DNA of 30,880 bases from a virus (IMGVR_UViG_648276660_000001); one strand, 5' to 3'. Positions 6,119-26,168 are shown, counted from the stretch's first letter. Made by a program: numbers and translations. The notes: generated by a model not told the origin, from the letters alone.

Positions 6119-6459
6119 TGGACTATTCACAGTTAAGTGATTTTGAAATTAACAGAATGGTAGGAGACATAATTTTTAAAGGCCTTTGGGCATGTAAACC
6201 GGAAACATCAGGGAATAACACCAACAAATGGTATTACGGAAATACTGATACAACTTTTGAGCCATTAAACCATTTACCTGACTACTGCAATGATCCTAGC
6301 GCCTCATGGCCGATTATTGAGAAACACAGGATTTCTATCTTAGACCAGTTAACTGAATGGTGTGTTGATGCAAAAGGCGTAAGACCAATATTTGATACCA
6401 GACCTCTCCGCGCCGCCATGATTGTATTTCTCATGATGCAGGAAAATCAGAATGGCTAA
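6118..6459 (+). CDS. Hypothetical protein (nin-region type)
   Basis: AGGAGG RBS 7 nt before ATG 6118, overlapping the upstream stop; 113 aa. Confidence 0.6.
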
Positions 6460-6790
6460 ATCAGCAGCAGAGCGCAAAGCCGCTCAGAGAGCCAGACAAG
6501 CTGCATCTGGTGTGCGTAAGCTGGAAATTGTGCTTGATGCTCAGGAAATTGAAATGCTGGAGCGTAACTGCGCCGCCCGGCGCCCTGGTCGCGATCCCTA
6601 TGAAATGGCCGAGTACATCGCGCTGCTGATCCGCCAGGATGATGCACGCGTGCGCGGGCGTATAAAATCGATCAGCAGAAAACGTTGCGGTAAGTGCGGC
6701 GAGAGAGTTCCAGTTAATTCATGCCCGTGTAATGGTGACTCGCAATGCTGGGTGACTAAAGGCTGGCATGAAACGAAATTAATAGTGTGA
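6452..6790 (+). CDS. Hypothetical basic protein with C-terminal Cys cluster (CGKCG...CPC...C); possible DNA-binding or regulatory protein immediately upstream of the late operon
   Basis: ORF with start overlapping the upstream gene end; zinc-ribbon-like Cys spacing in translation; the stop codon lies inside the GTGACATGTCAC palindrome. Confidence 0.6.
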
Positions 6791-6798
6791 CATGTCAC
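6787..6798. repeat. Perfect 12-bp palindrome GTGACATGTCAC, copy 1 of 3
   Basis: Exact string read in sequence; other copies at 9052..9063 and 26595..26606. Confidence 0.9.
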
Positions 6799-6839
6799 GA
6801 GTAGATTATGCATGATGAATTTGATGGGTTTTGAATACT

Positions 6840-6865
6840 GCCGCCAACTATGGCGGCTTTATTTT
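6840..6865 (+). terminator. Putative intrinsic terminator (GCCGCC-aactat-GGCGGC followed by TTTATTTT) at the end of the early/nin region
   Basis: GC hairpin plus T-run read in sequence; lies upstream of the predicted terminase start. Confidence 0.45.
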
Positions 6866-6875
6866 GCATGGTATT

Positions 6876-6892
6876 ATTACCACAACGGTAAC
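6876..6892. promoter_or_regulatory. Variant copy of the TTACC-N5-GGTAA palindrome (ATTACCacaacGGTAAC) just upstream of the terminase small subunit start
   Basis: Half-sites TTACC and GGTAA separated by 5 nt as in the eight consensus copies, but central flanking bases differ. Confidence 0.35.
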
Positions 6893-6908
6893 AATTACCA
6901 CGGTGGTT

Positions 6909-7505
6909 ATGATGCCTGCTGAACCTAAAACCTATAAACGCAAATCAACGCAATTTAAGCCGCTCACAGCAATGCAGGAGGCTTATTGCCAGTCATACAT
7001 CAAAACGCCTGAAAACCAGACTCAGGCAGCGATTAACGCAGGATTCTCCCCAAATACAGCGGCAGTTAAAGCCAGTGTCATGATGCGCGATGAACGCATT
7101 CAAAAACGGATTGCCGAGTTGATGGAGGAGCGCAACAAACGAATGCGCGTCAGTGCTGATTACGTTCTCATGCGCTTGGTGGAGATCGACCAGATGGACG
7201 TGATCGATATCCTCAACGACGATGGGAGCCTTAAACCAATCCGTGAGTGGCCGAAAATCTGGCGCACTACGCTTAGTGGCTTTGATCTGTCATCGACCAT
7301 CATGAACATGAACGAGGATTCGATAGAGACAATCCTCAAAAAAATTAAATGGCCTGACAAGGTGAAGAACCTAGAACTGATTGGTAAGCATGTTGATGTC
7401 AACGCGTTCAAAGAACGTCTGGATGTTAATGTGAATGTGACAATTGCTGATCGCATAGCAGCAGCCAGGAAGCGACTCAAAGAACGTCAGGATGGTAATC
7501 AGTGA
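6909..7505 (+). CDS. Terminase small subunit
   Basis: Translation contains LTAMQEAYCQSY...TQAAINAGFSPNTAAVKAS...RIQKRI, resembling recalled terminase small-subunit HTH domains; directly precedes the large subunit; start set at ATG 6909 after a GGTGG RBS (ORF is open from 6831). Confidence 0.75.
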   Translation: MMPAEPKTYKRKSTQFKPLTAMQEAYCQSYIKTPENQTQAAINAGFSPNTAAVKASVMMRDERIQKRIAELMEERNKRMRVSADYVLMRLVEIDQMDVIDILNDDGSLKPIREWPKIWRTTLSGFDLSSTIMNMNEDSIETILKKIKWPDKVKNLELIGKHVDVNAFKERLDVNVNVTIADRIAAARKRLKERQDGNQ

Positions 7506-8977
7506 CAGATACAGCGTTATCTCCTGAAGAGCAGTTGATCGAGGATATTGCAGGGTTCACTCACGATCCGCTTGGCTATGCCCTCTATGCGTTCCCGTGG
7601 GGGGAAGAGGGGACTGAATTAGCACATGCCACCGGTCCACGTAAGTGGCAGGCTGATGCGTTCCGAGAGATACGTGATCACCTGCAGAATCCAGAGACGC
7701 GCTATCAGCCGCTTATGCTGGCACGTGCTTCTGGTCATGGTATTGGTAAATCCGCATTCATCTCAATGCTGATCAACTGGGGCATGTCCACTTGCGAGGA
7801 TTGTAAGGTTGTGGTGACCGCCAACACCGACAACCAGCTACGAACGAAGACCTGGCCGGAAATTATCAAGTGGTCGAACCTTGCCATCACGAAAGACTGG
7901 TTTACCTGTACCGCTACCGCGATGTACAGCAATGATCCTGGGCACGACAAGCGGTGGCGAGCTGACGCAATCCCCTGGTCTGAGCACAACACTGAGGCAT
8001 TCGCCGGACTACACAACGAGCGCAAACGCATCATCGTGGTATTCGATGAAGCGTCGAACATTGCGGATCTGGTGTGGGAAGTTGCTGAGGGTGCGCTTAC
8101 GGACGAAGACACTGAGATTATCTGGGTGGCGTTCGGAAACCCTACACGTAATACCGGGCGTTTTCGCGAATGTTTCCGCAAATACAAACACCGCTGGAAA
8201 ACTGCGCAGATTGACAGCCGGACGGTGGAAGGTACTAACAAACAGCAGTTGCAGAAATGGGTTGATGACTACGGGGAAGACAGCGACTTCGTTAAAATCC
8301 GTGTGCGCGGCATATTCCCTGATGCATCTGAATTGCAGTTTATCCCTACCGGTCTTACTGATGAGGCAATGAAACGGGTGGTAACCGCTGCGCAGGTGGC
8401 TCATGCTCCGGTGATAATCGGTGTTGACCCGGCATATTCAGGCGTTGATGACGCGGTGATATACCTGCGGCAGGGGTTGCATAGTAAGGTGCTATGGACT
8501 GGCAACAAGACCACTGACGATCTGATTATGGCGAAGCGTATCGCTGACTTTGAAGACCAGTATCAGGCTGACGCGGTGTTCATCGACTTCGGTTACGGAA
8601 CCGGTCTGAAGTCAATCGGTGACGGCTGGGGGCGCACATGGCAACTTGTTCCGTTCGGTGGTGCGTCAACTGACCCTCAGATGCTCAACAAGCGCGGGGA
8701 GATGTTCAACTCATGCAAGACATGGCTGAGGTTGGGCGGGATGCTGGATGACCAGGAAACAGCGGACGATCTGTCGGCGGCAGAGTACAAAGTTCGCGTG
8801 GACGGTAAAATCGTTATCGAACCGAAGGAAGATATCAAAGAACGACTTGGGCGTTCGCCGGGTAAAGGCGATGCGCTACTGCTGACGTTTGCTTTCCCTG
8901 TGTCGAAGCGTCTGCGAATTCCCGGGCAGCAGAACCAGCAAGGCAAGGCCATCACAGATTACGATCCCTATGCTTAA
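7502..8977 (+). CDS. Terminase large subunit (ATPase plus nuclease)
   Basis: Walker A-like ASGHGIGKS, Walker B-like IIVVFDEAS, C-terminal nuclease-like GVDPAY segment; GTGA overlap with the small subunit stop. Confidence 0.9.
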   Translation: MTDTALSPEEQLIEDIAGFTHDPLGYALYAFPWGEEGTELAHATGPRKWQADAFREIRDHLQNPETRYQPLMLARASGHGIGKSAFISMLINWGMSTCEDCKVVVTANTDNQLRTKTWPEIIKWSNLAITKDWFTCTATAMYSNDPGHDKRWRADAIPWSEHNTEAFAGLHNERKRIIVVFDEASNIADLVWEVAEGALTDEDTEIIWVAFGNPTRNTGRFRECFRKYKHRWKTAQIDSRTVEGTNKQQLQKWVDDYGEDSDFVKIRVRGIFPDASELQFIPTGLTDEAMKRVVTAAQVAHAPVIIGVDPAYSGVDDAVIYLRQGLHSKVLWTGNKTTDDLIMAKRIADFEDQYQADAVFIDFGYGTGLKSIGDGWGRTWQLVPFGGASTDPQMLNKRGEMFNSCKTWLRLGGMLDDQETADDLSAAEYKVRVDGKIVIEPKEDIKERLGRSPGKGDALLLTFAFPVSKRLRIPGQQNQQGKAITDYDPYA

Positions 8978-9028
8978 TCCGCTGGTGGGGATAATGTCGT
9001 TGATATCCTCTGATGAGGATAAAACAAA

Positions 9029-9051
9029 GCCAGCTCATCGGCTGGCTGTTT
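9029..9051. terminator. Bidirectional intrinsic terminator (GCCAGC-tcatcg-GCTGGC, T-rich on both sides) abutting palindrome copy 2
   Basis: Hairpin and flanking T/A runs read in sequence between convergent genes. Confidence 0.55.
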
Positions 9052-9063
9052 GTGACATGTCAC
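9052..9063. repeat. Perfect 12-bp palindrome GTGACATGTCAC, copy 2 of 3
   Basis: Exact string read in sequence. Confidence 0.9.
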
Positions 9064-9067
9064 GGTG

Positions 9068-9487
9068 TTATTTAATGGCATTAAATCCAGCGTTGATGGC
9101 TTCCGCAATATTGATGGCACTTGTTTTATCGAAGTGCCCATTCTGAATAAGCGCCGCATGCAGGCATTGTAACTTCATGTTGTATAAGTGTTCGCTCATG
9201 TAATCATTATCACTTTTTGCTTTAGCGTAAACAGCGCGAGAAATATCAAACACATCGCCTTTTTCCATTTCAGAACGTTGTGCTGTTATCCAGTCATGGA
9301 ACGTAACGCTAGTACCATGGTCTTCGCTAAGAGTTAACCCGGCCAGTCCCTCACTCTGAATTACTTCGTAATGCATTTCATTATCAGCAAAAACGCCATA
9401 AAAAATGCAGTCTTCAGCCTGAACGATACGAGAATATTTTAATGGCCATTCATTTAGATACTTAGCCAACATATCAATTGTCTTCAT
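9068..9487 (-). CDS. Hypothetical cargo protein (139 aa) on the opposite strand between terminase and portal
   Basis: AGGTGA RBS 5 nt upstream of ATG (minus strand); no recognisable motif; opposite orientation to flanking structural genes. Confidence 0.65.
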   Translation of the reverse strand: MKTIDMLAKYLNEWPLKYSRIVQAEDCIFYGVFADNEMHYEVIQSEGLAGLTLSEDHGTSVTFHDWITAQRSEMEKGDVFDISRAVYAKAKSDNDYMSEHLYNMKLQCLHAALIQNGHFDKTSAINIAEAINAGFNAIK

Positions 9488-9498
9488 GATCTCACCTT

Positions 9499-9522
9499 AA
9501 AAAAATGCCCGGCGAACCGGGC
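9499..9522 (-). terminator. Intrinsic terminator-like hairpin (GCCCGG-ttcg-CCGGGC plus T7 run on minus strand) ending 1 nt before the RBS of the 139-aa gene
   Basis: Read in sequence; unusual placement suggests an attenuator or read-through control. Confidence 0.45.
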
Positions 9523-9596
9523 GAACTGGAAGCAATGAGTTATGCCTTCCGTGGCTGTACGGGTTTACAGCATGAAGTCATCGCAATGGCGTCCTG

Positions 9597-9642
9597 CTGT
9601 AAAAAGGGCGGTGATAGTCCTTCAAGGGAAACTATCACCGCC
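9597..9642 (-). terminator. Terminator of the tRNA transcript (12-bp perfect stem GGCGGTGATAGT/ACTATCACCGCC followed by CTTTTTA on minus strand)
   Basis: Inverted repeat and T-run read in sequence immediately 3' of the tRNA. Confidence 0.55.
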
Positions 9643-9685
9643 AAGCACCTGGAGCTTCTGGCATCACGGTCCTTAGGCGTGATTC

Positions 9686-9762
9686 TGGCGTGGCATGCAG
9701 GATTCGAACCTGCGACCAACCGCTTAGAAGGCGGTTGCTCTGTCCAACTGAGCTAATGCCAC
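9686..9762 (-). tRNA. tRNA-Arg (anticodon UCU), phage-encoded
   Basis: Minus-strand 77 nt: GTGGCAT-TA-GCTC-AGTTGGACA-GAGC-A-ACCGC-CTTCTAA-GCGGT-TGGTC-GCAGG-TTCGAAT-CCTGC-ATGCCAC-G-CCA; 7-bp acceptor stem, canonical D, anticodon and T arms; anticodon loop CTTCTAA gives TCT; encoded CCA end. Confidence 0.9.
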
Positions 9763-10084
9763 AACGCTGAGAGCACTTAGCCTGTTAAGGCGCCACACTT
9801 TGTCGCGGCTCCATAAATGCTCTCATCGTTGTACCCTCGTCTCTTCCGAGGCGTCACACCGAATCGCCGGGATGGTGAATCCCCGTGCGCGGAATAAAAC
9901 CGCTCGACTTGCACATTCCGGCTACCTGGTTCGTTTGCCCGAGCAAGGGAGGGTGCCCCTTAAACGTATCCAGACCGCTATCGGCGCATGTGCCATACGC
10001 CGTACTGCTCAAAATAAAAGCTCACTCCACCTGTTCAATTTAACGACAAGCCAGTCAGGTTAGTAACCGGAATGAACTCTTTGG

Positions 10085-10121
10085 TTACCTAAAGGGTAAT
10101 AATTAGCGCGTTAAATGTCAA
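10085..10121 (-). promoter_or_regulatory. Predicted minus-strand sigma70 promoter (perfect -35 TTGACA at 10116..10121, 17-bp spacer, -10 TACCCT at 10093..10098) whose -10 is the half-site of operator palindrome TTACCTaaaGGGTAAT (10085..10100)
   Basis: Read in sequence; directs transcription toward the tRNA and the 139-aa gene. Confidence 0.45.
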
Positions 10122-10189
10122 CTTTCTACGATAAATAAATCATATGTGGTTAAATTGGTAATAATTTAATTGCGTACGGAGTCATTGAT

Positions 10190-10396
10190 ATGTGCATGGG
10201 TAGCTCACCATCAGTGCCTGCAACACCAGAAGTTCAGGCAGCACCACAGGAGCAGGATGCCGCCGTTGTTGATGCCCGCGACGAAGAAACACGTCGCCGT
10301 CGCGCTGCTGCTGGTCGTAGTTCTACGCTGCTTACCGGTTCTCAGGGCGACACATCAACTGCTAATACCAGCGGTAAAACGCTGCTTGGTCAGTAA
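10190..10396 (+). CDS. Small virion-associated protein, T7 gp6.7-like (tentative)
   Basis: GGAG RBS; 68 aa starting Met-Cys as in T7 gp6.7 (recalled); its RBS string CGGAGTCATTGA is duplicated before the portal gene; sits immediately upstream of portal. Confidence 0.5.
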   Translation: MCMGSSPSVPATPEVQAAPQEQDAAVVDARDEETRRRRAAAGRSSTLLTGSQGDTSTANTSGKTLLGQ

Positions 10397-10410: not shown

Positions 10411-12090
10411 ATGGCGGAAACAACTAAAGAGCGATTGAACAAACAGTTCGCACAACTTGAAAGCGAGCGTCAGTCGTTCGAGCCGCACTGGCGCGAGTTG
10501 AGTGATTACATCAACCCGCGTGGTTCCCGCTTTCTGACTTCTGAGGTCAACCGTAACGATCGACGCAATACACGCATTATTGATTCGACCGGGACTATGG
10601 CGGCGCGCACTCTCGCCAGCGGCATGATGTCAGGCATCACAAGCCCTGCGCGTCCGTGGTTTCGCCTGGCTACGCCAGATCCTGAAATGATGGATTATGG
10701 TCCTGTTAAGTTGTGGCTCGAGGCGGTGCAGAACCGCATGAACGATATGTTCAATAAGTCGAATCTCTACCAGTCTCTTCCGCAGTTATACGGAAGCCTC
10801 GGCACATACAGCACTGGTGCAATGGCGGTGCTGGAGGATGACGAGGACATCATTCGCACAATGCCATTCCCGATAGGCAGTTACTACCTGGCTAACTCAC
10901 CTCGTGGCAGTGTGGACACCTGTTTTCGCAAGTTCTCTATGACTGTTCGTCAGCTTGTTCAGGAGTTCGGGCTAAATAACGTCAGCGAATCCGTAAAAAG
11001 CATGTGGGAAAGCGGCACCTACGAGAAGTGGATTGAAGTGATGCATTCGGTTTACCCGAACATTGACCGCGATACATCGAAGCTGGATAGCAAGAACAAG
11101 CCATTCAAATCGGTTTATTACGAGTTTGGCGGCGATAACGACAAGTTGTTGCGTGAGTCCGGATTCGATGAGTTTCCAATTATGGCTCCGCGCTGGGAAG
11201 TTAACGGCGAAGATGTTTATGGATCATCATGCCCGGGTATGCTGGCGCTTGGACCTGTTAAGGCATTGCAGCTTCTCCAGAAGCGCAAGTCGCAGTTGAT
11301 TGATAAAGCCACCAATCCGCCGATGGTTGCTCCGACTTCCCTCAAGAATCAGCGCGCCTCCCTTCTTCCTGGCGACATCACGTATATCGATCAGATTACT
11401 GGTCAGGATGGTTTCAGGCCTGCTTATCTGGTTAACCCCAGTACAGCAGATCTGGTAGCAGACATTCAGGACACTCGTCAAATCATTAACAGCGCCTACT
11501 TTGTCGATCTGTTCATGATGTTGCAGAACATCAATACCCGCTCGATGCCTGTTGAAGCGGTGATCGAAATGAAAGAAGAAAAACTTCTGATGTTGGGTCC
11601 GGTTCTGGAGCGTCTGAACGACGAATGTCTTAATCCTCTCATTGACCGCGCTTTCTCGATGATGGTGCGTAAAAACATGCTGCCGCCACCGCCAGACGTG
11701 ATGGAAGGTATGCCCCTGAAGGTCGAATACATTTCCGTCATGGCTCAGGCGCAGAAGTCTATCGGCCTGTCCAGTCTGGCGTCCACGGTTAACTTCATTG
11801 GTCAACTTGCGCAAGCGAAACCAGAAGCTCTCGACAAACTCAACGTTGATCAGGCGATCGATGCATTCGCTGATATGTCCGGAGTGTCTCCAACCGTCAT
11901 TGTTCCGCAGGAACAGGTTGAGCAGGCTCGCCAGCAACGAGCACAGCAACAACAGCAGCAACAAATGATGGCGATGGGGATGGCGGCGGCACAGGGTGCC
12001 AAGACGCTAAGCGAAGCTAAAACTTCGGATCCGAGTGTTTTGTCAGCTATGGCGAATGCAGTTAGTGGTCAGGGGGGGCAATCACAATGA
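10411..12090 (+). CDS. Portal (head-to-tail connector) protein, T7 gp8-like
   Basis: 559 aa; Gln/Ala/Met-rich C-terminus (QQQQQQQMMAMGMAAAQGA...) resembles recalled T7 gp8 C-terminus; position after terminase and before scaffold/capsid. Confidence 0.85.
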   Translation: MAETTKERLNKQFAQLESERQSFEPHWRELSDYINPRGSRFLTSEVNRNDRRNTRIIDSTGTMAARTLASGMMSGITSPARPWFRLATPDPEMMDYGPVKLWLEAVQNRMNDMFNKSNLYQSLPQLYGSLGTYSTGAMAVLEDDEDIIRTMPFPIGSYYLANSPRGSVDTCFRKFSMTVRQLVQEFGLNNVSESVKSMWESGTYEKWIEVMHSVYPNIDRDTSKLDSKNKPFKSVYYEFGGDNDKLLRESGFDEFPIMAPRWEVNGEDVYGSSCPGMLALGPVKALQLLQKRKSQLIDKATNPPMVAPTSLKNQRASLLPGDITYIDQITGQDGFRPAYLVNPSTADLVADIQDTRQIINSAYFVDLFMMLQNINTRSMPVEAVIEMKEEKLLMLGPVLERLNDECLNPLIDRAFSMMVRKNMLPPPPDVMEGMPLKVEYISVMAQAQKSIGLSSLASTVNFIGQLAQAKPEALDKLNVDQAIDAFADMSGVSPTVIVPQEQVEQARQQRAQQQQQQQMMAMGMAAAQGAKTLSEAKTSDPSVLSAMANAVSGQGGQSQ

Positions 12091-12383
12091 CAGATTACGA
12101 AGACGATCAACTGAAAGAAGAAAACGCCCGTAAGCAACGTGACATGGCAAAGCGTGAAATTGATGACATTCGCTTTGTCATGAGCAGTGAACAGGGGCGT
12201 CGCGTTGTCTGGTCTGTGCTGGAGAAAGGCCGGGTGTTTTCCGCTATCTCTCCGATGGATGCTATGGCAATGGCATTTAATGAGGGGCAACGCAATCTGG
12301 CGCTGGAACTGTTTCAGCGCGTTATGGCGCATTGCCCTGAACAGTATTTGAAGATGGCCAAAGAGGCCAGTGAACAGGAGTGA
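12087..12383 (+). CDS. Hypothetical protein (98 aa, charged, helical-looking)
   Basis: ATGA overlap with the portal stop; G-rich RBS. Confidence 0.55.
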   Translation: MTDYEDDQLKEENARKQRDMAKREIDDIRFVMSSEQGRRVVWSVLEKGRVFSAISPMDAMAMAFNEGQRNLALELFQRVMAHCPEQYLKMAKEASEQE

Positions 12384-12385: not shown

Positions 12386-13081
12386 ATGAATTTATTTGAG
12401 CGTTTGCTGTATCGCCGTCTTTGCAATGAGCAGCCAGCCGATGGCGGGGCAGCTCCGGCTGCGTCAGAACCGTCAGCGCATGCAGGTGATAACCCTGCTC
12501 CAGTTGGTGATCCATCACAACAGGAAGGTGATAAGCCACAACCTGTTGCTGATGGCGATAAACCTGCTGATGACAAAAAGCCTGAAAACGATAAGCAGGG
12601 TGAAAAAAAGGACGGCGATAAACCAGAGGGTGCGCCTGAGAAGTACGAGTTTCAGGCTGCCGAAGGCGTAGAGCTGGATACAGAAGCGTTGAAGGAATTC
12701 GAGCCGGTGGCGCGAGAACTTAACCTGACCAACGAGCAAGCGCAAAAGCTGGTTGATGCTTATCCGAAGATTCTGGCAGGTGTTCAGCAGCGCCAGGCAG
12801 AAGCCTGGCAGAAAACAACCGAGCAGTGGGCTGCGGATGTAAAAGCTGACAAAGAAATCGGTGGCGACAAGTTGATTTCTAACCTTAGCGCCGCACAGCG
12901 TGCGCTTGACCAGTTCGGGACACCTGAGCTCAAAGAATATCTGAACACCACCGGGCTGGGTAATCACCCTGATCTGGTCAAAACGTTCGTGAAAATCGGA
13001 AAGGCGATGTCTGAAGATGGCATGGTCACCGGTGGTAATGAAGGCCAGCGTAGTGCGGCCGAAGTGCTCTATGGCAAATAA
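12386..13081 (+). CDS. Putative scaffolding protein
   Basis: CAGGAG RBS 5 nt before ATG 12386; acidic, Pro/Asp/Lys-rich low-complexity N-terminus and helical C-terminus; located between portal and capsid. Confidence 0.65.
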   Translation: MNLFERLLYRRLCNEQPADGGAAPAASEPSAHAGDNPAPVGDPSQQEGDKPQPVADGDKPADDKKPENDKQGEKKDGDKPEGAPEKYEFQAAEGVELDTEALKEFEPVARELNLTNEQAQKLVDAYPKILAGVQQRQAEAWQKTTEQWAADVKADKEIGGDKLISNLSAAQRALDQFGTPELKEYLNTTGLGNHPDLVKTFVKIGKAMSEDGMVTGGNEGQRSAAEVLYGK

Positions 13082-13095: not shown

Positions 13096-14082
13096 ATGGC
13101 TGTTAAAGGCTTAACTGCGCTAACGCTGGCTGACTGGGGTAAGCGCGTCGATCCAAACGGGAAAGTCGATAAGATTATCGAGCTTCTCGGTCAAACTAAC
13201 CCGATCCTTCAGGATATGCCTTTTGTCGAAGGGAACCTTCCTACCGGACACCGAACCACCATTCGTTCTGGTTTACCTTCAGCTACCTGGCGTTTGCTGA
13301 ACTATGGCGTACAACCAAGCAAATCAACAACGGTGCAGGTCACTGATTCCATTGGCATGCTGGAAACCTATGCTGAAGTCGATAAGTCTCTGGCTGATCT
13401 GAACGGTAATACTGCCGAATTCCGCCTGTCTGAAGACCGAGCATTTATTGAAGCGATGAATCAGGCGATGGCGCAGACGCTGTTTTACGGTGATTCCAGC
13501 GTTAACCCTCAGCAGTTTATGGGACTGTCCTCCCGCTATTCCAGCCTGTCTGCGGGTAATGCTCAGAACATCATTGATGCTGGTGGCACGGGTACAGATA
13601 ACACTTCAATCTGGTTAGTGGTGTGGGGCGAAAACACCGTGCATGGCATCTTCCCGAAAGGGCAGAAGGCTGGCATCCAGATGGAAGATAAAGGCCAGGT
13701 GACACTGGAAGATGCTAATGGCGGCAAGTACGAAGGTTATCGTACCCATTATAAGTGGGACAACGGGCTGACATTGCGTGACTGGCGCTATGTTGTTCGC
13801 ATTGCAAACATCGATGTCAGCAATCTTGACGCTCCTTCTACTGCTGCGAATATCGCAAAACTGATGATTCGTGCCCTTCATCGAATCCCAAATCGTGGGA
13901 TGGGACGTCCTGTTTTCTACATGAACAGAACCATTAACGAAGTGCTTGACCTGCAATCTCTGGAGAAGAGTTCTCTGGCGATCAGCGTGAAAGAGACAGA
14001 AGGCGAATGGTGGACAGAACTTCGTGGTGTGCCGATTCGCGAAACTGACGCACTTCTGGAAACAGAAGCCCGCGTGGTGTAA
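13096..14082 (+). CDS. Major capsid protein
   Basis: GAGAGG RBS 8 nt before ATG 13096; ~328 aa; position after scaffold; followed by a GC-rich stem-loop. Confidence 0.8.
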   Translation: MAVKGLTALTLADWGKRVDPNGKVDKIIELLGQTNPILQDMPFVEGNLPTGHRTTIRSGLPSATWRLLNYGVQPSKSTTVQVTDSIGMLETYAEVDKSLADLNGNTAEFRLSEDRAFIEAMNQAMAQTLFYGDSSVNPQQFMGLSSRYSSLSAGNAQNIIDAGGTGTDNTSIWLVVWGENTVHGIFPKGQKAGIQMEDKGQVTLEDANGGKYEGYRTHYKWDNGLTLRDWRYVVRIANIDVSNLDAPSTAANIAKLMIRALHRIPNRGMGRPVFYMNRTINEVLDLQSLEKSSLAISVKETEGEWWTELRGVPIRETDALLETEARVV

Positions 14083-14098
14083 CGCCTGTTATTAACCT

Positions 14099-14118
14099 GT
14101 GGGCCGCAACAGGCCCAC
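14099..14118 (+). other. GC-rich stem-loop (GTGGGCC-gcaaca-GGCCCAC) after the capsid gene; no T-run
   Basis: Inverted repeat read in sequence; T7-type phages carry a terminator after the capsid gene (established knowledge), but here it may be only an RNA stability or processing element. Confidence 0.4.
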
Positions 14119-14133
14119 TAATGGAGAAAGAAG

Positions 14134-14571: not shown

Positions 14572-14581
14572 GGTGATATTG

Positions 14582-14917: not shown

Positions 14918-14967
14918 GCCTCGCGAATCAGACAAGGGGCTTCGGCTCCTTTATTGCAGGAGTGTAT

Positions 14968-18367: not shown

Positions 18368-18831
18368 TGATCGATGTTCAAATTATTCCCGCCACCGAAG
18401 AGCATCTTCAGATGATTTTGCCGGATGTTCGTCAGGCTGATATTGACGAACTGTATGCGGTATCGCTGATGACTACCGAAGATGCGCTGCGTGTTGGTCT
18501 TCGCACTGCGACTATGGCCTGGTCAGGATTTGCGAACGGAGAACTGGTAACCATGTTTGGCGTATCTCCGGCGTCAATGATCGGTGGCAATGGTACGCCC
18601 TGGCTGGTAGGAACCAGCCGTATTGAAAAATATCAGAAGACATTTCTGCGCCACTGCCGCCCTGTATTGCAGCAGATGCTGGCAGTTTATCCGCGCCTGG
18701 AAAACTACGTCGACGAGCGAAACCATGTTGCCAAAGCATGGCTGCACTGGCTTGGATTCAGGCTTGAAGAAGCCGCGCCTTATGGTGCTCTTGGTCTTAA
18801 TTTCCACAGATTTCACATGGAGAGAAAATAA
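18367..18831 (+). CDS. Hypothetical protein at the gp13 position; C-terminus (NHVAKAWLHWLGFRLEE) looks like a GNAT acetyltransferase motif
   Basis: 154 aa; start overlaps upstream stop; the GNAT resemblance is a recalled pattern, not a search result. Confidence 0.55.
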   Translation: MIDVQIIPATEEHLQMILPDVRQADIDELYAVSLMTTEDALRVGLRTATMAWSGFANGELVTMFGVSPASMIGGNGTPWLVGTSRIEKYQKTFLRHCRPVLQQMLAVYPRLENYVDERNHVAKAWLHWLGFRLEEAAPYGALGLNFHRFHMERK

Positions 18832-19376
18832 TGTGCGATCCGGTTATTGCTGGTGGCGCAATGCTCGCCATGAGTGGCATTCAGGCATACACCCAGTACC
18901 AACAGGGAAAGTATGCCTCGAAGGTTGCAGAAGCGAACGCAGATATAGCCACAGCTCAGGCAAATGATGCAATAAACAGAGGTAACGCTGAAGCTGAGCA
19001 ACGGCGCAGAGAGACCCGACAGCGGCTTGGTACACAGGCGGCGACAATGGGGGCTACCGGCGCTGATTTATCTACAGGTAACGCGCTGGATATATTTGGC
19101 GACACTGCCCAGTTTGGCGCTCTTGATTCTCTGACGACGGTGAATAACGCGCAACGCGAGGCTTACGGTTATCAGGTTCAGGCTGCCAACTATAAAGCAG
19201 AAGCCAGTTCAGCCCGTAAACAGGGGAATGTGGGAGCAGCAACAACATTGCTCACTGCGCCTCTGAAGGCATACGGTGCGTACCAGATGTTTGGTGGGAC
19301 GTGGAGTCCGTTTACTCAAAGCACCCCTGCGCCAATCGGAGCAGCAGCAGGAACCAGATTACCCGGAGGATTATAA
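18831..19376 (+). CDS. Internal virion protein B-like (T7 gp14-like), tentative
   Basis: 181 aa beginning MCDPVIAGGAMLAMSGIQA, comparable to T7 gp14 N-terminus MCWAAAIPIAISGAQA (recalled); Ala/Gln-rich. Confidence 0.6.
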   Translation: MCDPVIAGGAMLAMSGIQAYTQYQQGKYASKVAEANADIATAQANDAINRGNAEAEQRRRETRQRLGTQAATMGATGADLSTGNALDIFGDTAQFGALDSLTTVNNAQREAYGYQVQAANYKAEASSARKQGNVGAATTLLTAPLKAYGAYQMFGGTWSPFTQSTPAPIGAAAGTRLPGGL

Positions 19377-21889
19377 TGCCAGTCGTACCAACAGTATCCG
19401 GACGTCAGGTTGAGAGCCGTGGAGTTCAGTCAGCAGGCTTGCAGACGTTTTCTCAGCCAGGTATTGGTGATGCTTTTGTTCGGGCAGGGGCAGAGGCAAT
19501 TGATGTTTTGGGGCAGGCAAAACAGCGTGCCAATATTGCCTTGGCTCAGGAGGCATCTCTTAACCTCAGTCAGATAAGCAGTGATTTGCTGAATAATCCT
19601 GAAACAGGATTGCTTAACCTGAAAGGGAAAAATGCTATTGGAAAAGGCCATGAGTATACGCAGCAGTTTGATGCTCAGGTCGAACAATTGGCTATGTCGC
19701 TGCCGGATGAACAGGCTCGTAATGCTTTCATGCAGCAGGCGCAGCAGCAGCGCATTCAGTTCACTACGCAGGCCGGGCGGCACGAGATAGGGCAAATAAA
19801 TGCCTACGAAGAAGGCCAGTTTCAGGCTACGCTGCTGAACAATGGTAAAAATGCCGCAGCATTGTATGGCGACAACGCCGCATACGTATTGGCTAATAAG
19901 CAAACTTTCCAGCAAATTGAGGATTACGGCATTGCACATGGCTGGAGTGACGAGCAAATCCAGGCCAAGAAAATCGAGTTTAAAGAAGCAACAGCAAAAG
20001 CAACTGCTCAAAATGCTATTGGAGCAAACTATCTTCAGGTAAGATGGCAAAACGGCGAGTTAAGCGATACTGCTGCTGGATCTCGCCGTGCTGTAGCAGA
20101 TAGTGGCTCTTCCGATCGTACCCGCGGTATACGCAACAATAACCCCGGCAATCTTGAATACAGCAAAACTAATCCGTGGGTTGGGCAGACTGGTGATGAT
20201 GGTCGCTTTGCCAAATTCGAAACCCCTGAACACGGTATTCGTGCATTAGGGCGGAACCTGATGTCGTATCAGCGGCAGGGTATTGATACCGTCAGCGAGA
20301 TAATTAATCGCTGGGCACCGCCTACTGATAAAAATGACACTATGTCGTATATCAAAGCAGTGTGCGAACAACTTGGCGTTTCTGCTGATGAGCCTCTCGA
20401 TGCATCAAATCCTGATACCCTGAAGGCGCTTTGTGCAGCCATTATCCATCATGAAAACGGTAGCCAGCCATACAGTGATCAGCAGTTAACTGCAGGTGTT
20501 AGTGCTGCGCTGGGGCTTTCTCAGCTACCGACAAAAAATAAACGTTATACCGGTGTAGCCTGGTTCGATGCTTTAAGTGAATCAGATCAGGCCAGCGTGT
20601 TGCGACAGACTGATGCACTAGCCAGACAACAGCAGGCTGAATATAAAACGATGCTCGACAGCCGGGTTCGCGATGCGACGGCTGCGTATATGCGTGGCGT
20701 TGAATTTCCTAACCCACCTGGTGAGGATGATTTTATTGCAGCTTATGGAGTCAGAGAAGGAAACCTGCGATATACCGAGTTTAAGAATACGCAGATCGCC
20801 GGACAGTATATAGGCTCTTTCCGCAACATGCCGACAAGCAGCATTACAGCATATGTTGAGCAATTACGCCCGGATACTGGTGATACAGGGGAGGGGTATG
20901 CGGCACGCGCAGCTCTTTATGACAACGTTGTTTCGGCTGCAAATCAGGTGATAAAGCAGCGGCAGTCGGATCCTGTGCAGTTCTCTCTTGCCTCCGGACA
21001 GGCAAAGCCTATCGACATGAGCAATAAGGATAACTTTGGACAGAGCGTTGCCTTGCGTGCCGCTCAGGTCAGTGACCTTGCTAAGTCATATGGCACTCCA
21101 CTGACGTTCTTTTCCAAAGACGAGGCCAATCAGATCGGTGTTTTCTTTCGTGATGCGCCAGTTTCCCAACAGGCAGCATATCTCGATACCATCAGGCAGA
21201 GCACTGGTGGTGGGCAGGTGTATATGTCAGCACTACAGCAGATCAGTGCCAACGCTCCATCTGCTGCCGTTGCCGGGATACTGATGGATAAGCCTGGTGG
21301 TATTTTGGCAGAAAAAAACTGGTTTAATCCTGATGTTTCCGTGTCTCCTGAAACCGCAGCGCAGACAATTCTTGCTGGTGCGGCGGCTCGTAAAGGTACT
21401 GATGACGCGAAAGGTATTCCGATGCCTAAAGATGCTGATCTCCGCATTGAGTTTTCTGACATGGTGAAGGATGCATTTGCTGGTGATGCTCAGGGGGCAT
21501 CAATGGCATACGAGATCGCAAAGGACTATTACGCTGGTGTGATGGCGAAAAAAGGCGTGGTATCAGGCGAAATTGACAATGATATCTGGAAACAGGCTGT
21601 TAACGTAGCTACAGGTGGCGTGCATGACTATAACGGAATGGGGAATGTTCTTTTGCCGTGGGGAATGTCTGCAGAGCAATTCGATAAGCAGGTTAATCAG
21701 GCTTGGAATGAACAAGTTGTCGGCACAGGGATAAAAACACCGCTTGGTCAGTATGGTTTGCAAAGTTACGGCGATAGTCAGTACCTGGTGAAACTTGGTA
21801 CTGGTTATCTGCTAAAAGATGATGGTTCTCCCGTTGTTCTTGATCTGACACAGAAGCGTCAGAGATTCTCCGGAGATATTCCGCAATGA
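19376..21889 (+). CDS. Large internal virion/ejection protein with a conserved central block (GIRNNNPGNLEY ... IIHHENG), possibly a cell-wall-acting domain
   Basis: ATG 19376 with GGAGGA RBS and TAATG overlap (the ORF-track extension from 19301 overlaps the upstream gene); 837 aa; position after gp14-like gene. Confidence 0.7.
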   Translation: MPVVPTVSGRQVESRGVQSAGLQTFSQPGIGDAFVRAGAEAIDVLGQAKQRANIALAQEASLNLSQISSDLLNNPETGLLNLKGKNAIGKGHEYTQQFDAQVEQLAMSLPDEQARNAFMQQAQQQRIQFTTQAGRHEIGQINAYEEGQFQATLLNNGKNAAALYGDNAAYVLANKQTFQQIEDYGIAHGWSDEQIQAKKIEFKEATAKATAQNAIGANYLQVRWQNGELSDTAAGSRRAVADSGSSDRTRGIRNNNPGNLEYSKTNPWVGQTGDDGRFAKFETPEHGIRALGRNLMSYQRQGIDTVSEIINRWAPPTDKNDTMSYIKAVCEQLGVSADEPLDASNPDTLKALCAAIIHHENGSQPYSDQQLTAGVSAALGLSQLPTKNKRYTGVAWFDALSESDQASVLRQTDALARQQQAEYKTMLDSRVRDATAAYMRGVEFPNPPGEDDFIAAYGVREGNLRYTEFKNTQIAGQYIGSFRNMPTSSITAYVEQLRPDTGDTGEGYAARAALYDNVVSAANQVIKQRQSDPVQFSLASGQAKPIDMSNKDNFGQSVALRAAQVSDLAKSYGTPLTFFSKDEANQIGVFFRDAPVSQQAAYLDTIRQSTGGGQVYMSALQQISANAPSAAVAGILMDKPGGILAEKNWFNPDVSVSPETAAQTILAGAAARKGTDDAKGIPMPKDADLRIEFSDMVKDAFAGDAQGASMAYEIAKDYYAGVMAKKGVVSGEIDNDIWKQAVNVATGGVHDYNGMGNVLLPWGMSAEQFDKQVNQAWNEQVVGTGIKTPLGQYGLQSYGDSQYLVKLGTGYLLKDDGSPVVLDLTQKRQRFSGDIPQ

Positions 21890-23688
21890 GTTACTTTGGC
21901 CTTAATCCAGTAAACCAGAATCAGCAGCTTGACGAAGCAGCATCAAATCCAGCTGGCTTTAACAGCGATGTTGGTTTTTTCGACAATGCTGTAGGAGCGG
22001 CATTGTCTGGTTTGTACTCCGGGCTGGTGGCAAAGCCAGATCAGTTGCTCTGGGCAGGGATGGATAAAATCGTATCCCCGATTGCTCAGTTTGTTAACGA
22101 AAACACCTCGCTCAATGACACTTCAGTTTCATACATTGCCGAGCAGAGAAAACTAGCAGAGCAGCAGGTTAAGCGGCTGACGCCTGATGCCGCGACAACT
22201 GGAACCGCCGGGCAGGTTCTTTATGGGTTGTTCGATATGGGCGGGCAGGCTGTTGTTGGTACAACGCTCGGTGGTCCGGTCGGAGGTGCTGCGGCGGTAA
22301 CTTCGCTACAGGGTTTTTCTGAGTTTGAACGGCTGACAGCACAGGGTGTTGATTTCAGGACGGCGCAGGAAGCGGGATTAGTGCAGGGCATTACTGCTGG
22401 TGCCGGAACGCTGATCCCTATAAGCCTCGGGTTACGTGCTGGTGGTGCGCTGGCGGAAGGTGTGGCGGCTCAGCTTGCGCGGACGGGTGAAAGTTCAGTG
22501 CGACGCGCCGCAGCAACAGCAGTACGTGCAACGCCAGATATTGCCTATGCCGCAGGTACAAATATTGCGTTCGGTATGGCACAGCGTGGGCTTACTGCAA
22601 AAACGCTTCGTGATGGTGGCTATAGCGAAATGGCTAATCAGTATGATGTGTTGGATCGACAGGCAATTGCTATTGATGCTGTTCTTGGAGTGGCGTTTGG
22701 TGGTGTCGGCAGATTTATTAACTCTCGCGGCGAGTCTACAAGCGCACCAAATTTTTCACCAGTTGATGTCGATGCTGCACTGGCGGCGAATGCCGCTCAT
22801 CATGCTGAAATTGATATTGCTCCCGGTGTGCCGATCAACGTGCTTTCGCGTAATTCGCACATTCAGGCTCTGCGAAAAGCCATGTCTGATGTTAGCCAGG
22901 GGAGACCTGTAGACGTTGCCAGCATTGTTGAGTCTGCATCTTTCAGTGAAATTCCTGGGCGCAAGAGTCTGCTTTCTCAGGCAGTTAATGAGGCTCTGTC
23001 ATCTGTAGATGATGGAGTAACGGCGCGCGCTATAGAAAATCGGTTGCTTGAAGAACAGGCCGCGCAGCTTTTGCCGCGTGGCGATAGACAGGTTTACCAG
23101 TCTGAAATCGCTAATAGCCAACGAATTATTGAAAATCTCACTGAACAGCGCGCACAAATTCTTGCAGAAGAGCCAACCGGTAGCGGTAAAGCTTTGTCTC
23201 GTGCTCGATCAGATAAACAGGCCAGACTTCGCGATATTGATCAACGAATCCGGCAGGCACAAGAACGCCTGGAGTTTTCCCGTAACGCGTTGGCACCGCA
23301 CGAGCCTGGCGGTCAGTTTTTTGAAGCTCGAGCAGAACTGGCACGACGACAGCAGGCAGAAAGTGAACTTAATGCTCAGGCTGTTTCATTCTATAAAACA
23401 GCAGAGGTCAGGACGCCAGACGAAGTAGCTCCTTTTGAGCCCGGTAAGATATTGCAACAGACAGAACAAAAAATGATGGCAGATCCGGCAGGAGATATTG
23501 ATCTGCGTATAGCTGAAGACTCGCTGCTTGAATCTCCGGACATGATAATCACCGTGCTGGATGATGATGGTAATCCACAATCGCGCAGTGCGCGTGAAGT
23601 ACTGGATGAAGCGAACAGGGAAAGTGAGCAGGCAATACAGGATTCCAGCCTGTTTGATGTTGCTGTGGCGTGTTTCTTGAGAGGTTAA
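21886..23688 (+). CDS. Large internal virion/ejection protein (Gly/Ala-rich N-terminal half, charged coiled-coil-like C-terminal half)
   Basis: 600 aa; ATGA overlap with upstream gene. Confidence 0.7.
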   Translation: MSYFGLNPVNQNQQLDEAASNPAGFNSDVGFFDNAVGAALSGLYSGLVAKPDQLLWAGMDKIVSPIAQFVNENTSLNDTSVSYIAEQRKLAEQQVKRLTPDAATTGTAGQVLYGLFDMGGQAVVGTTLGGPVGGAAAVTSLQGFSEFERLTAQGVDFRTAQEAGLVQGITAGAGTLIPISLGLRAGGALAEGVAAQLARTGESSVRRAAATAVRATPDIAYAAGTNIAFGMAQRGLTAKTLRDGGYSEMANQYDVLDRQAIAIDAVLGVAFGGVGRFINSRGESTSAPNFSPVDVDAALAANAAHHAEIDIAPGVPINVLSRNSHIQALRKAMSDVSQGRPVDVASIVESASFSEIPGRKSLLSQAVNEALSSVDDGVTARAIENRLLEEQAAQLLPRGDRQVYQSEIANSQRIIENLTEQRAQILAEEPTGSGKALSRARSDKQARLRDIDQRIRQAQERLEFSRNALAPHEPGGQFFEARAELARRQQAESELNAQAVSFYKTAEVRTPDEVAPFEPGKILQQTEQKMMADPAGDIDLRIAEDSLLESPDMIITVLDDDGNPQSRSAREVLDEANRESEQAIQDSSLFDVAVACFLRG

Positions 23689-23693
23689 ATTAA

Positions 23694-26168
23694 ATGAGAC
23701 AGGAATGTATACAAGCGGTCCAGCAGGCGGCGCAGCGCACGTTAACGGCGCGAGAAATACAGAACATTGAAGACCGCATTTATCGAAATATGCGCTCCAT
23801 TGCTCGTGATGACCCGATGTCGTGGCGACAACTTTCCGAATCAGAACGGTTGTATCGTGCAGCACAATTGGCATCTGAAGAATTACAGCGAGAAGCGGCA
23901 TTAAAGAAACGTCGTGTGGCCCTCACTATAGCCGCACGTCAGAGATTGGATAAATTTATCAATAGCTATCAAGGGGCTGATGGGAAACTTGGCGCTCTTA
24001 ACCGTACTATTGCTTTTAATGCAGACGGTAAATCGAATTTCCTCTCTGTTGAATCCAGAACAAAAGCCACCCGTGATTATGCATTGAGTCAATTGCAGGA
24101 GGCATTCGAAGCAGTTGATCCTCGCTTTTTTGGTCTGTTTGAAGATGAAGCGGGCGTACGTGACCTGGTATATGAAATGCGGGGGCAAAATACTGGCAAT
24201 GCTAAAGCAAGAAAAGGTGCTAAGGCGTGGAGAGAAGTTACAGAGCTGCTGCGCCGCCGGTTTAATGATGCTGGTGGGGACATTGGCTATCTCGAAAACT
24301 GGGGGATCCCTCAACATCATTCTATGGAAAAGGTTGGGGCGGTATCAAAGGATAAGTGGGTTAGCGATGTTATAGGTAAGCTGGATCGCAAATATTATAC
24401 CCGAGCCGATGGACAACTGATGAACGATGCCGAGTTGTCTGAATTTCTTGGAGAGGCTTATAACACGATCGCTACTGGTGGGCTGAATAAGCTTACTGAT
24501 ACCGGAATGCGAATTTCCGGCGCACGTGCTAACCGTGGTAATGCATCACGACAGATACATTTCAAAGATGCAGATTCCTATCTGCAATATCAGCAACTTT
24601 ATGGCGATCGCTCTCTATGGGAAATCATGGTCGGTCACCTGGAAGGTATCAGTAAAGATATTGCGCTGGTGGAAACATATGGCCCAAACCCCGATCATGT
24701 TTTCCGCTCCCTTCTTGATCAGGTTAAGGCAGAAACGGCAACAGCTAACCCGAGTAAAACCGGTAGCGTCGAGCGTCTGGCGAACAAAACAGAGAACTTG
24801 TACAACTTTATTTCCGGAAAAACACAGCCTGTAGCGAATCCGCACATCGCGCGATGGTCTGACAATATCCGCAACTGGCTGGTTGCCAGCAGACTCGGAT
24901 CCGCGTTGCTGTCATCGTTCTCTGATCTTGGAACCATGTATCTGTCTGCGAAGGTTACCAACCTTCCAATGAACCAGTTATTTCGCAACCAGCTTGAAGC
25001 TATGGACCCAACGAACCGTACAGAACTTGCGCGGGCGCGCCGCGCTGGCCTGGCGATGGAATCTCTACTTGGCAGCGTTAACCGCTGGGCGATGGATAAT
25101 ATGGGGCCGTCTGTGTCTCGTTGGGCGGCAACGGCGGTAATGCGTGCCAGTGGGCTTACAGCATGGTCAGATGCGCACAAGCGCGCCTATGGCGTAACCA
25201 TGATGGGAAGCCTGGGAGAAGTAGTGTCACGGACACCAGACCTTCGTAGCCTCGATGACTCTGATTTTCGTATCCTGAAAAGCAAAGGGATTACTGACAC
25301 AGACTGGAGCGTATGGAAGCTGGCGCAACAGGAGGACTGGGGGAACGGTAATAATACGATGCTGACACCGGAAAGCATTATGCGTATCCCTGATTCAGCA
25401 GTTAAACATCTTGGTGAGCCTGAACGCGTGAAATTTGAGGCAATGCGTAAACTGCTCGGTGCCGTAACTGAAGAAGTTGATATGGCTGTTATTACACCGG
25501 GCGCACGTGAACAGATGTTCGTAGGGTCTGGTCTTCAGCGTGGAACATGGAAAGGTGAATTAACGAGAAGTGTTTTCCTGTTTAAATCGTTCCCTATCTC
25601 GGTAGTTATGCGTCACTGGCATAGAGCTATGGGGATGCCGTCTGCTGGTGGGCGTGCGGCATATATAGCAACGTTTTTAGCAAGCACAACCATGCTTGGT
25701 GCTCTTTCCATGCAGATTACTGATCTTATTAATGGGAGAAATCCAAAAGAAATGACCGGTGACAACATGGTTAAATTCTGGATAAATGCATTTTTAAAAG
25801 GTGGTGGGGCAGGGTTGTATGGTGATTTTCTTTTCTCTGACCACACCAGGTACGGGAGCGGCGCACTAGCGTCGATGCTTGGCCCGGTAGCTGGTCTGGT
25901 TGATGACGTAGTGAAGATTGCTCAGGGCATACCGTTAAATGCTGTGGAAGGGAAGAATGAGCAGACTGGTGGTGATCTGGTTAAGCTTGGGAAAGGTTTG
26001 ATGCCTGGTGCGAATCTCTGGTACTTGAAGGCGGCTCTCGATCACATGATCTTTAATCAGATGCAGGAGTATTTTTCACCAGGCTATTTGCGTAAAATGG
26101 AGCAACGTTCGAAGAAAGAGTTTAACCAGACATACTGGTGGCGACCTCAGGATGTCACTCCGCAATAA
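23694..26168 (+). CDS. Large internal virion/ejection protein
   Basis: 824 aa; last large gene of the late operon before the accessory island. Confidence 0.7.
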   Translation: MRQECIQAVQQAAQRTLTAREIQNIEDRIYRNMRSIARDDPMSWRQLSESERLYRAAQLASEELQREAALKKRRVALTIAARQRLDKFINSYQGADGKLGALNRTIAFNADGKSNFLSVESRTKATRDYALSQLQEAFEAVDPRFFGLFEDEAGVRDLVYEMRGQNTGNAKARKGAKAWREVTELLRRRFNDAGGDIGYLENWGIPQHHSMEKVGAVSKDKWVSDVIGKLDRKYYTRADGQLMNDAELSEFLGEAYNTIATGGLNKLTDTGMRISGARANRGNASRQIHFKDADSYLQYQQLYGDRSLWEIMVGHLEGISKDIALVETYGPNPDHVFRSLLDQVKAETATANPSKTGSVERLANKTENLYNFISGKTQPVANPHIARWSDNIRNWLVASRLGSALLSSFSDLGTMYLSAKVTNLPMNQLFRNQLEAMDPTNRTELARARRAGLAMESLLGSVNRWAMDNMGPSVSRWAATAVMRASGLTAWSDAHKRAYGVTMMGSLGEVVSRTPDLRSLDDSDFRILKSKGITDTDWSVWKLAQQEDWGNGNNTMLTPESIMRIPDSAVKHLGEPERVKFEAMRKLLGAVTEEVDMAVITPGAREQMFVGSGLQRGTWKGELTRSVFLFKSFPISVVMRHWHRAMGMPSAGGRAAYIATFLASTTMLGALSMQITDLINGRNPKEMTGDNMVKFWINAFLKGGGAGLYGDFLFSDHTRYGSGALASMLGPVAGLVDDVVKIAQGIPLNAVEGKNEQTGGDLVKLGKGLMPGANLWYLKAALDHMIFNQMQEYFSPGYLRKMEQRSKKEFNQTYWWRPQDVTPQ

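Follow-up and report, generated by a model that had tools for sequence, protein, structure and literature searches.

Late-gene organization, dispersed operators and a palindrome-linked 112-residue protein in an epsilon15-type prophage of Escherichia coli

In phage lambda, late control is built on Q, PR' and tR'. In phage P1, many C1 operators lie around the genome, and at immI a c4 antisense RNA controls an antirepressor. Closest to the DNA discussed here are the temperate podoviruses phiV10 and epsilon15 of the genus Uetakevirus. We analyzed a 30,880-nucleotide stretch of viral DNA (IMGVR_UViG_648276660_000001; this whole stretch is called the window, and positions are counted from its first letter) and concentrate on two elements that bear on its late control: an operator palindrome dispersed among the transcription units, and a Cys-rich protein of 112 residues, encoded just upstream of the terminase genes, with a second palindrome that accompanies its gene. 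An earlier note on this DNA had described it as a mosaic, in which a lambda-type replication and nin region is joined to a T7-like virion module, and had proposed that late control must be organized unlike that of lambda.

The window covers part of a temperate podovirus prophage of the epsilon15/phiV10 type (genus Uetakevirus) that is inserted at guaA in E. coli. Its best match is a prophage adjoining guaA in E. coli strain MS 198-1 (the matching prophage). Over a 20.5-kb region, the nucleotide identity of HEMP4, vB_EcoP_ZX5 (ZX5), PAS61 and phiV10 is 96-97% across 93-98% of the length (phiV10: 96.6% over 93%, colinear with the window); Salmonella phage epsilon15 is about 76% identical and also colinear. 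At least 80% of the same region is present in 283 of 5,426 complete E. coli genomes. Nucleotide colinearity, epsilon15-type capsid proteins and the genome plan all agree with the placement in Uetakevirus.

The left end of the window lies just to the right of the immunity region; at its right end the window takes in 1 kb of the tailspike gene, from that gene's start. The plan comprises the immunity region, an early-right operon with replication and nin-like genes, terS-terL, a minus-strand insert, the genes for portal, capsid, tail tube and ejection proteins, an antirepressor island, the tailspike gene and the lysis cassette. The matching prophage, phiV10 and epsilon15 are annotated with one and the same layout, from a gp49-type gene through terS/terL to the tailspike, the lysis cassette and the integrase and attachment site at guaA. 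Like the window phage, phiV10 and epsilon15 have an integrase on the guaA side and a gp49-type gene immediately ahead of terS; their set of capsid, tail and ejection genes is the same, their lysis genes come after the tailspike, and their operators and palindromes are in equivalent positions. The differences lie in the nin-like accessory genes, the tailspike and the antirepressor island; in the stretch seen, the window prophage is without the O-acetyltransferase of phiV10 and the serotype-conversion genes of epsilon15. The open reading frames listed in the earlier note are all present on the plus strand, in the order and at the sizes given. The gene order that it called a mosaic is thus real, but it is not new: published Uetakevirus genomes normally lack Q and lysis genes ahead of terminase, and this plan was already known. 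Taken together with the proposals on the late units and the 112-residue protein developed below, we hold this overall explanation to be very probable.

Dispersed operators and the late units

Neither a Q gene nor a lysis cassette precedes terminase, as the earlier note had said. No Q-family Pfam domain was found in any plus-strand frame of positions 1-7000 (E <= 0.01), nor in the 112-residue protein, and comparison with the matching prophage, phiV10 and epsilon15 places the lysis genes (two holin-like genes, a glycoside hydrolase family 19 endolysin and Rz/Rz1) after the tailspike. In the matching prophage they occupy locus 40587-42384, about 1.7 kb beyond the end of the window. Because Q and the lysis genes are both missing before terminase, the proposal that late control differs from that of lambda stands. 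The two systems share an early-right operon with P-family and nin-type genes and an intrinsic terminator at the late junction. Unlike lambda, however, the window phage has no Q-family protein, carries its lysis genes at the opposite end of the late genes, and has several late units with immunity-type operators.

These operators are copies of a 15-bp palindrome, TTACC-N5-GGTAA, which occurs 10 times in the window against an expectation of 0.5, with starts at 23, 1951, 2013, 6877, 6895, 10085, 27525, 28570, 28663 and 29783. The whole prophage has 15 copies at up to one mismatch. Epsilon15 likewise has 15, at equivalent places, which its record annotates as repressor sites. Operators stand on both sides of the repressor gene and also ahead of terS, the portal operon, the tailspike gene, the antirepressor island and the DUF1064 operon.

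At the first late junction, in the gap of about 120 nt between the 112-residue gene and terS, the second palindrome comes first; it is followed by an intrinsic terminator, then by an extended -10 motif, and last by two copies of the operator. To say that terminase follows the 112-residue gene directly is therefore correct in that no gene intervenes but overlooks what the gap contains. The terminator, t1 (6840..6865, plus strand; GCCGCCAACTATGGCGGC followed by TTTATTTT), ends the early-right operon and is annotated in phiV10 and epsilon15. Next to it stands a putative terS promoter (6869..6909, plus strand), with an extended -10 sequence, TGgTATTAT, at 6869-6877 that is overlapped by the operators at 6877-6891 and 6895-6909; its function is suggested by the sequence. 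The gene for the small terminase subunit, terS (6909..7505, plus strand; PF03592, 1e-29), probably begins at ATG 6909 or 6912 and not at TTG 6831, as annotated in RefSeq and phiV10, because a reading frame from TTG 6831 would run through t1 and the operators and because the epsilon15 start aligns here. The large subunit, terL (7502..8977, plus strand; phrog_2 at 1.3e-52, phrog_5902; annotated in phiV10), is P1 PacB-like and not of T7 type. Between terL and the portal operon lies a minus-strand insert (9068..9762) that consists of a 139-residue moron (phrog_4846, 9068-9487) and a tRNA-Arg(TCT) gene (9686-9762). Strong minus-strand terminators are present in this insert at 9642-9607 and 9522-9507.

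The portal operon and the tailspike gene have control regions of a common design. Upstream of the portal operon (10085..10168, plus strand), the operator TTACCTAAAGGGTAA at 10085-10099 is followed by a conserved block, CATATGTGGTT-N5-GGTAATAAT, at 10141-10168. The tailspike region (29783..30880, plus strand) has an operator at 29783-29797, a block with TAGAAT at 29827-29853 and, from 29902 on, the 5' part of the tailspike gene. In both the window prophage and epsilon15, the block upstream of portal and tailspike takes the form CATATNTGGTT-N5-GGTAATA and carries a -10-like hexamer, TAGAAT or TAATTT. These blocks may be late promoters, or the site for some activator.

In the arrangement that we propose, the late genes would form at least three units, namely terS-terL, the portal-to-gp18 operon and the tailspike gene, each bounded by intrinsic terminators and preceded by an immunity-type operator. 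Because each unit is preceded by the same palindrome that flanks the repressor gene, we favor, on balance, a model in which the prophage repressor would shut each late unit directly and not via a Q cascade. In ZX5, transcripts of holin and endolysin dropped by 99.97-99.99% when the repressor was overexpressed (PMC9782041), a decrease that fits direct repression without proving it.

Such an organization would appear to resemble that of P1 more than that of lambda. As in P1, operators are dispersed before many operons, a C4 RNA lies upstream of an antirepressor gene, and the terminase is PacA/PacB-like. Unlike in P1, neither a late activator of Lpa type nor a late promoter of P1 type was recognized in the window phage, the repressor is a helix-turn-helix protein of Xre type, and the operators are symmetric. 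The antirepressor island (27525..28677, minus strand) is flanked by the operators at 27525, 28570 and 28663. It encodes a BRO-N antirepressor (27612..28298, minus strand; from annotation), a C4 antisense RNA (RF01695; 28347..28432, minus strand; 77.8 bits against a gathering score of 45) and an isrK-like Hfq-binding RNA (28457..28533, minus strand; above the Rfam gathering score). The C4-family antisense RNA upstream of the BRO-N antirepressor gene marks this as a P1 immI-like locus. The antirepressor of ZX5 was tested (PMC9782041).

The 112-residue protein and the palindrome linked to its gene

The 112-residue protein (6452..6790, plus strand; phrog_536) is encoded by the last gene of the early-right operon and belongs to the family of epsilon15 gp49, phiV10 p55 and N15 gp46. 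Homologues occur in N15 (gp46), phiKO2 (gp45), ZF40, P2-like Yersinia phages and Vibrio phages. In other phages, too, the gene stands last or nearly last in the early-right operon. The family is small (160 cluster representatives at E <= 0.001). Six Cys are invariant among close relatives; what is conserved across the whole family is a basic N-terminal stretch, a central core and four Cys. R8 and R13, inside the mostly conserved N-terminal stretch RKxxQRxR, are among the most conserved residues. An AlphaFold2 model built with an alignment of 51 diverse members reached a predicted local distance difference test score (pLDDT) of 93 and superseded an earlier run with 19 close homologues (pLDDT 58). 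The predicted architecture is a basic N-terminal helix, a ribbon-helix-helix (RHH) core and a C-terminal four-Cys zinc module; such a protein would bind nucleic acid.

Searches of Pfam, NCBIfam and PDB sequences returned no match to this protein, and a Foldseek comparison of the model with the PDB gave nothing informative. The predicted core fold and the association with a short palindrome recall the RHH regulators (Arc and Mnt of P22, CopG, MetJ, antitoxins), which are mostly repressors. The 112-residue protein differs from them in adding the basic helix and the zinc module, in that no solved structure or Pfam family covers it whole, and in that its sites lie at gene ends and not in known promoters. 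Membership of the TraR/DksA group was considered and rejected: the profile match is weak (E 0.036), and the Cys spacing is not CxxC-N17-CxxC. No study of late regulation in Uetakevirus, or of N15 gp46, was found in the literature searched.

The second palindrome, GTGAC-N2-GTCAC, is tied closely to this gene. Its perfect 12-bp form, GTGACATGTCAC, has exactly three copies in the window prophage, each beside an intrinsic terminator where a rightward operon ends, and epsilon15 has three copies at the corresponding operon ends. PAL1 (6787..6798) overlaps the stop codon of the 112-residue gene and lies 41 nt before t1; this site is also present at the stop codons of homologues in epsilon15, ZF40, N15, P2-like phages, Chlobot and Kp4865-1. 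PAL2 (9052..9063), between terL and the minus-strand moron and in the same place in epsilon15, is 4 nt from t2 (9028..9047), a hairpin terminator that is better on the minus strand and is likewise shared with epsilon15. PAL3 (26595..26606) stands at the end of the virion operon, whose last gene is 26178-26591, and abuts t3 (26607..26631, plus strand) with no intervening base; palindrome and terminator have the same place in epsilon15 and phiV10.

Beyond the genus, in N15, ZF40, Chlobot and Kp4865-1, GTGAC-N2-GTCAC falls on the stop codon of the homologous gene or close beside it. In P2-like loci the motif lies near the homologue's stop codon in 50 of 54 cases, against 2 matches in 323 kb elsewhere, and a 31%-identical subfamily has paired copies downstream of its gene. 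(The diverse loci for this survey were collected from two single diverged members; the close alignment yielded near-identical loci only.) Among close relatives, 75 of 79 keep the palindrome with the gene even where the downstream DNA has been replaced. Because this comparative linkage, across N15, ZF40, the P2-like loci and the close relatives, is strong, GTGAC-N2-GTCAC is likely the cognate site of the 112-residue protein. Since all three copies adjoin terminators that end rightward operons, we posit that the protein would most likely tune transcription across the boundaries of those operons.

Other explanations of the palindrome fared poorly. CRP, LexA and lac-type host sites misfit in spacing and sequence, as judged against their consensus. 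A P1-type late-promoter element centered at -22 would need a TANNNT hexamer, which is present at PAL1 only and not at PAL2, at PAL3 or in epsilon15, and a role as the -35 element of a PR'-like promoter before t1 is possible at the first site and impossible at the other two. As a separate observation, the gene that follows the 112-residue homologue in Kp4865-1 and in the P2-like Yersinia phages is preceded by a near-perfect LexA box, TACTGT-N8-ACAGTA, which suggests SOS-controlled inserts at this junction.

Several observations weigh against the picture drawn so far. At portal and tailspike the operator does not cover the promoter-like block but stands about 45-60 bp before it, an arrangement that does not obviously allow simple occlusion. 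In the window prophage, the search found no operator ahead of the lysis cassette, though epsilon15 has one. N15 carries the 112-residue homologue alongside a Q-like gene. The extra palindrome copies of ZF40 and N15 are inside early genes (a cII-like gene, a PL-operon gene and repA), not at terminators, so the link between terminator and palindrome may be specific to Uetakevirus. What, then, might switch the late genes, and what might the 112-residue protein do?

One possibility, to which we give little credence, is that of the earlier note: the mosaic is unusual, and the Cys-rich protein is a late activator that replaces Q at late promoters. The gene does stand last in the early-right operon and directly upstream of terS in all Uetakevirus records, its homologue in Vibrio phage K233 precedes the lysis and terminase region of that phage, where a palindrome copy lies 19 nt before the terS start codon, and the predicted fold is one that binds nucleic acid. 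The family's PHROG label is "transcriptional regulator," but no experimental basis for the label could be traced. The architecture, moreover, is the ordinary published one and no new mosaic; the promoter-like blocks before portal and tailspike do not contain the palindrome, which at two of three sites sits so close against a terminator that a promoter would not fit; P2-like phages carry the homologue after gene A; and its coexistence with a Q-like gene in N15 argues against a general replacement of Q. The palindromes within early genes of ZF40 and N15 would also fit a block to elongation, or an action on the transcript like that of N, better than promoter activation. Could some other factor throw the switch, leaving the 112-residue gene as an accessory nin-type gene? 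A PerC-family activator of the leftward early operon, which lies outside the window, is conserved in the window prophage, phiV10 and epsilon15, and the nonpalindromic block before portal and tailspike in the window prophage and epsilon15 could be an activator-dependent promoter. Nothing ties PerC to that block, however, and the tight link between the 112-residue gene and its palindrome would be left unexplained; we consider this distinctly improbable.

If the target were instead RNA, the arginine-rich N-terminal helix would bind a hairpin, GUGA-CNNG-UCAC, and RNA polymerase would read through t1, t2 and t3 to make one long late transcript, much as with N. The conservation of R8 and R13 in RKxxQRxR agrees with this, as does the position of the palindromes within transcribed DNA, where their neighbors are terminators in the window prophage and, in N15, Chlobot, K233 and L147, the ribosome-binding site of the following gene. 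The ZF40 and N15 copies occur in both leftward and rightward early operons, as nutL and nutR do, and helix plus zinc module weakly resemble the RNA-polymerase-binding TraR, a match that is not significant and differs in Cys spacing. On the other side, read along the plus strand, PAL2 comes after the t2 hairpin, and the predicted RHH core is a fold that typically binds double-stranded DNA. Recurrent variants (GTGTCCGGTCAC) disrupt the hairpin with no change to compensate, and single half-sites are kept at fixed distances; both fit DNA recognition better. We rate action on RNA as rather unlikely, although the arginine-rich helix and the proximity to terminators and ribosome-binding sites keep it in play; half-sites, uncompensated variants and RHH fold favor binding to DNA. 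Bound to DNA, the protein might be nothing other than a roadblock, an insulator or a late repressor of early transcription, with no activating role in the late genes. This is possible, if still doubtful. All three sites are at operon ends beside terminators, two of them at convergent junctions; a protein bound at the extra ZF40 and N15 copies would block elongation through the genes that contain them; and the repressor habit of RHH proteins and the fixed spacing of half-sites in P2-like loci point the same way. The need to reinforce an efficient intrinsic terminator is not evident, however, and the palindromes that adjoin ribosome-binding sites in several phages are not accounted for. The reading that we prefer is still direct shut-off of each late unit by the prophage repressor, with the 112-residue protein tuning the operon boundaries. 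A bolder extension, which we offer as speculation that is unlikely to hold in full, is that the gp49/N15-gp46 family would be an undescribed class of phage regulator that acts on GTGAC-N2-GTCAC, decides whether transcription crosses the boundaries at t1-t3, and so does the early-late coupling done elsewhere by Q in another way.

The virion module and its likeness to T7

The earlier note had called the virion module T7-like. This is borne out at the profile level for the portal and the gp13 and gp14 counterparts, and fails for capsid, scaffold and terminase, which belong to other lineages. Comparison of 19 proteins with 15 T7 proteins by BLASTP and phmmer gave no significant match, so that the pairwise similarity to T7 looked for did not appear and the links are of profile level only. 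Published work with hidden Markov model (HMM-HMM) comparison has related the epsilon15 tubular tail proteins A and B and the internal virion proteins (IVP) IVP-A, IVP-B and IVP-D to T7, found no epsilon15 counterpart of IVP-C (gp15), and placed the epsilon15 terminase and capsid with those of siphoviruses (PMC4819975).

Just upstream of the portal gene is a 68-residue, epsilon15 gp3-like protein starting Met-Cys (10190..10396, plus strand). It sits where gp6.7 sits in T7, but homology to gp6.7 was not detected. The portal (10411..12090, plus strand), with a Q/A/M-rich C terminus, is of the T7 gp8 family as proposed: it matches PF12236 at 4.9e-187 and PDB 8ck0, and portal and T7 gp8 match reciprocally in PHROG (phrog_332, phrog_449). 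A Bbp19-like protein follows (12087..12383, plus strand; PF25181), and then a 231-residue protein (12386..13081, plus strand; phrog_458), acidic and Pro-rich in its N-terminal part and helical-looking, by eye, in its C-terminal part. Its database label is "protease," for which PDB and NCBIfam offer no support, and the scaffold role suggested for it is reasonable. The capsid set, at 13096..15291, is of epsilon15/BPP-1 type: the major capsid protein of the epsilon15 gp7 family (13096..14082, plus strand; PF20911, 1.7e-148), the Bbp16 cement protein (14134..14571, plus strand; PF21190, 3.6e-49), a gp9-like protein (14582..14917, plus strand) and the gp10 staple (14968..15291, plus strand; PF21628, 1.1e-51). 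Capsid and scaffold differ from T7 gp10 and gp9 in Pfam and PHROG family and show no pairwise similarity to them. The only family common to terminase and T7 gp18/gp19 is the generic phrog_2 (T7 gp19 at 6.3e-08), again with no pairwise similarity.

The tail and ejection genes come next. A 201-residue tail adaptor or tubular protein A and an 823-residue nozzle or tubular protein B (15291..18367, plus strand; phrog_394, phrog_376) match the "Connector" (8.1e-26) and "Tail Nozzle" (5.5e-217) of a related phage in PDB 8ck1. The internal virion proteins (18367..19376, plus strand) include a 154-residue homologue of T7 gp13, both being in phrog_308, and a 181-residue protein starting Met-Cys (18831-19376) that was rightly likened to gp14, since it passes the Pfam T7_gp14 model (PF24072, 2.5e-7; 31.2 bits against a cut-off of 27). 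Three large ejection or internal proteins complete the series (19376..26168, plus strand; PHROG; PMC4819975), of 837 residues with a transglycosylase-like segment, 600 residues, and 824 residues, the last corresponding to epsilon15 gp17, the IVP-D homologue. The gp11/gp12-sized tail genes and the three large genes are thus present at the sizes given in the earlier note. Size and order match those of T7, but no BLASTP, phmmer or common PHROG hit joins the tail-tube proteins to gp11/gp12 or the large proteins to gp15/gp16; for gp11, gp12 and gp16, a remote relationship is reported in PMC4819975.

The module is therefore that of the epsilon15 lineage with a distantly T7-related tail and ejection apparatus, not a T7 module joined to lambda; only the portal, the tail tube and nozzle, and the internal ejection proteins are distant T7 relatives. 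The window phage shares with T7 (Autographiviridae) the portal family, the gp13 and gp14 homologues, tail tube proteins A and B followed by internal proteins, the sizes of the gp11/gp12 counterparts, and two small proteins that start Met-Cys, as T7 gp6.7 and gp14 do (window 10190-10195 and 18831-18836). Unlike T7, it is temperate, has its terminase genes first rather than last, and carries the transglycosylase-like segment in the first large protein and not the last. A phage single-subunit RNA polymerase is absent from the annotated genes of the whole prophage, phiV10 and epsilon15.

Early-right operon and implications

Upstream of the 112-residue gene lies the gene for a replication initiator (334..1131, plus strand) that combines HTH_36 and the DnaT DNA-binding domain, as found by Pfam on the frame translation and in the RefSeq annotation of the matching prophage. 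A lambda P-family helicase loader follows (1128..1913, plus strand; PF06992, 4.4e-55; also annotated in the matching prophage). Of the lambda-type replication pair claimed earlier, the P-like member is upheld, but the supposed O-like member is not of the lambda O family. Tandem repeats lie within the initiator gene, one of 24 bp at 657-719 (2.6 copies, 100% match) and one of 12 bp at 724-752. They are probably origin iterons, and they translate to a repeated PKNGMLND peptide. After the P-family gene come DUF551, Ead/Ea22 and DUF1064 genes (Pfam, frame translations) and then a NinX-family nin-region gene (6115..6459, plus strand; PF10765, 2.4e-14). Relative to MS 198-1, the window has one extra base at about 6001-6040, which leaves intact the DUF551 gene that is split in the RefSeq record, and substitutions at about 3561-3760 in the Ead/Ea22 gene, a pseudogene in the MS 198-1 record.

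The genome plan itself was already known; on that side the finding redescribes a common prophage genus and changes little. Phages of the epsilon15/phiV10 type are widespread in E. coli and Salmonella and have been used as E. coli O157 reporter phages. For these phages, the pairing of a candidate regulator with its palindrome, together with the dispersed operators, is a modest new lead on late control, one apparently unstudied in the literature searched. Its testable parts are the operators before each late unit, the promoter-like block of portal and tailspike, and an uncharacterized family tied to a palindrome. The link between this family and its palindrome spans temperate phages of podo-, myo- and siphovirus type. 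If it is true that the 112-residue protein controls termination, it would represent a new type of phage transcription switch.

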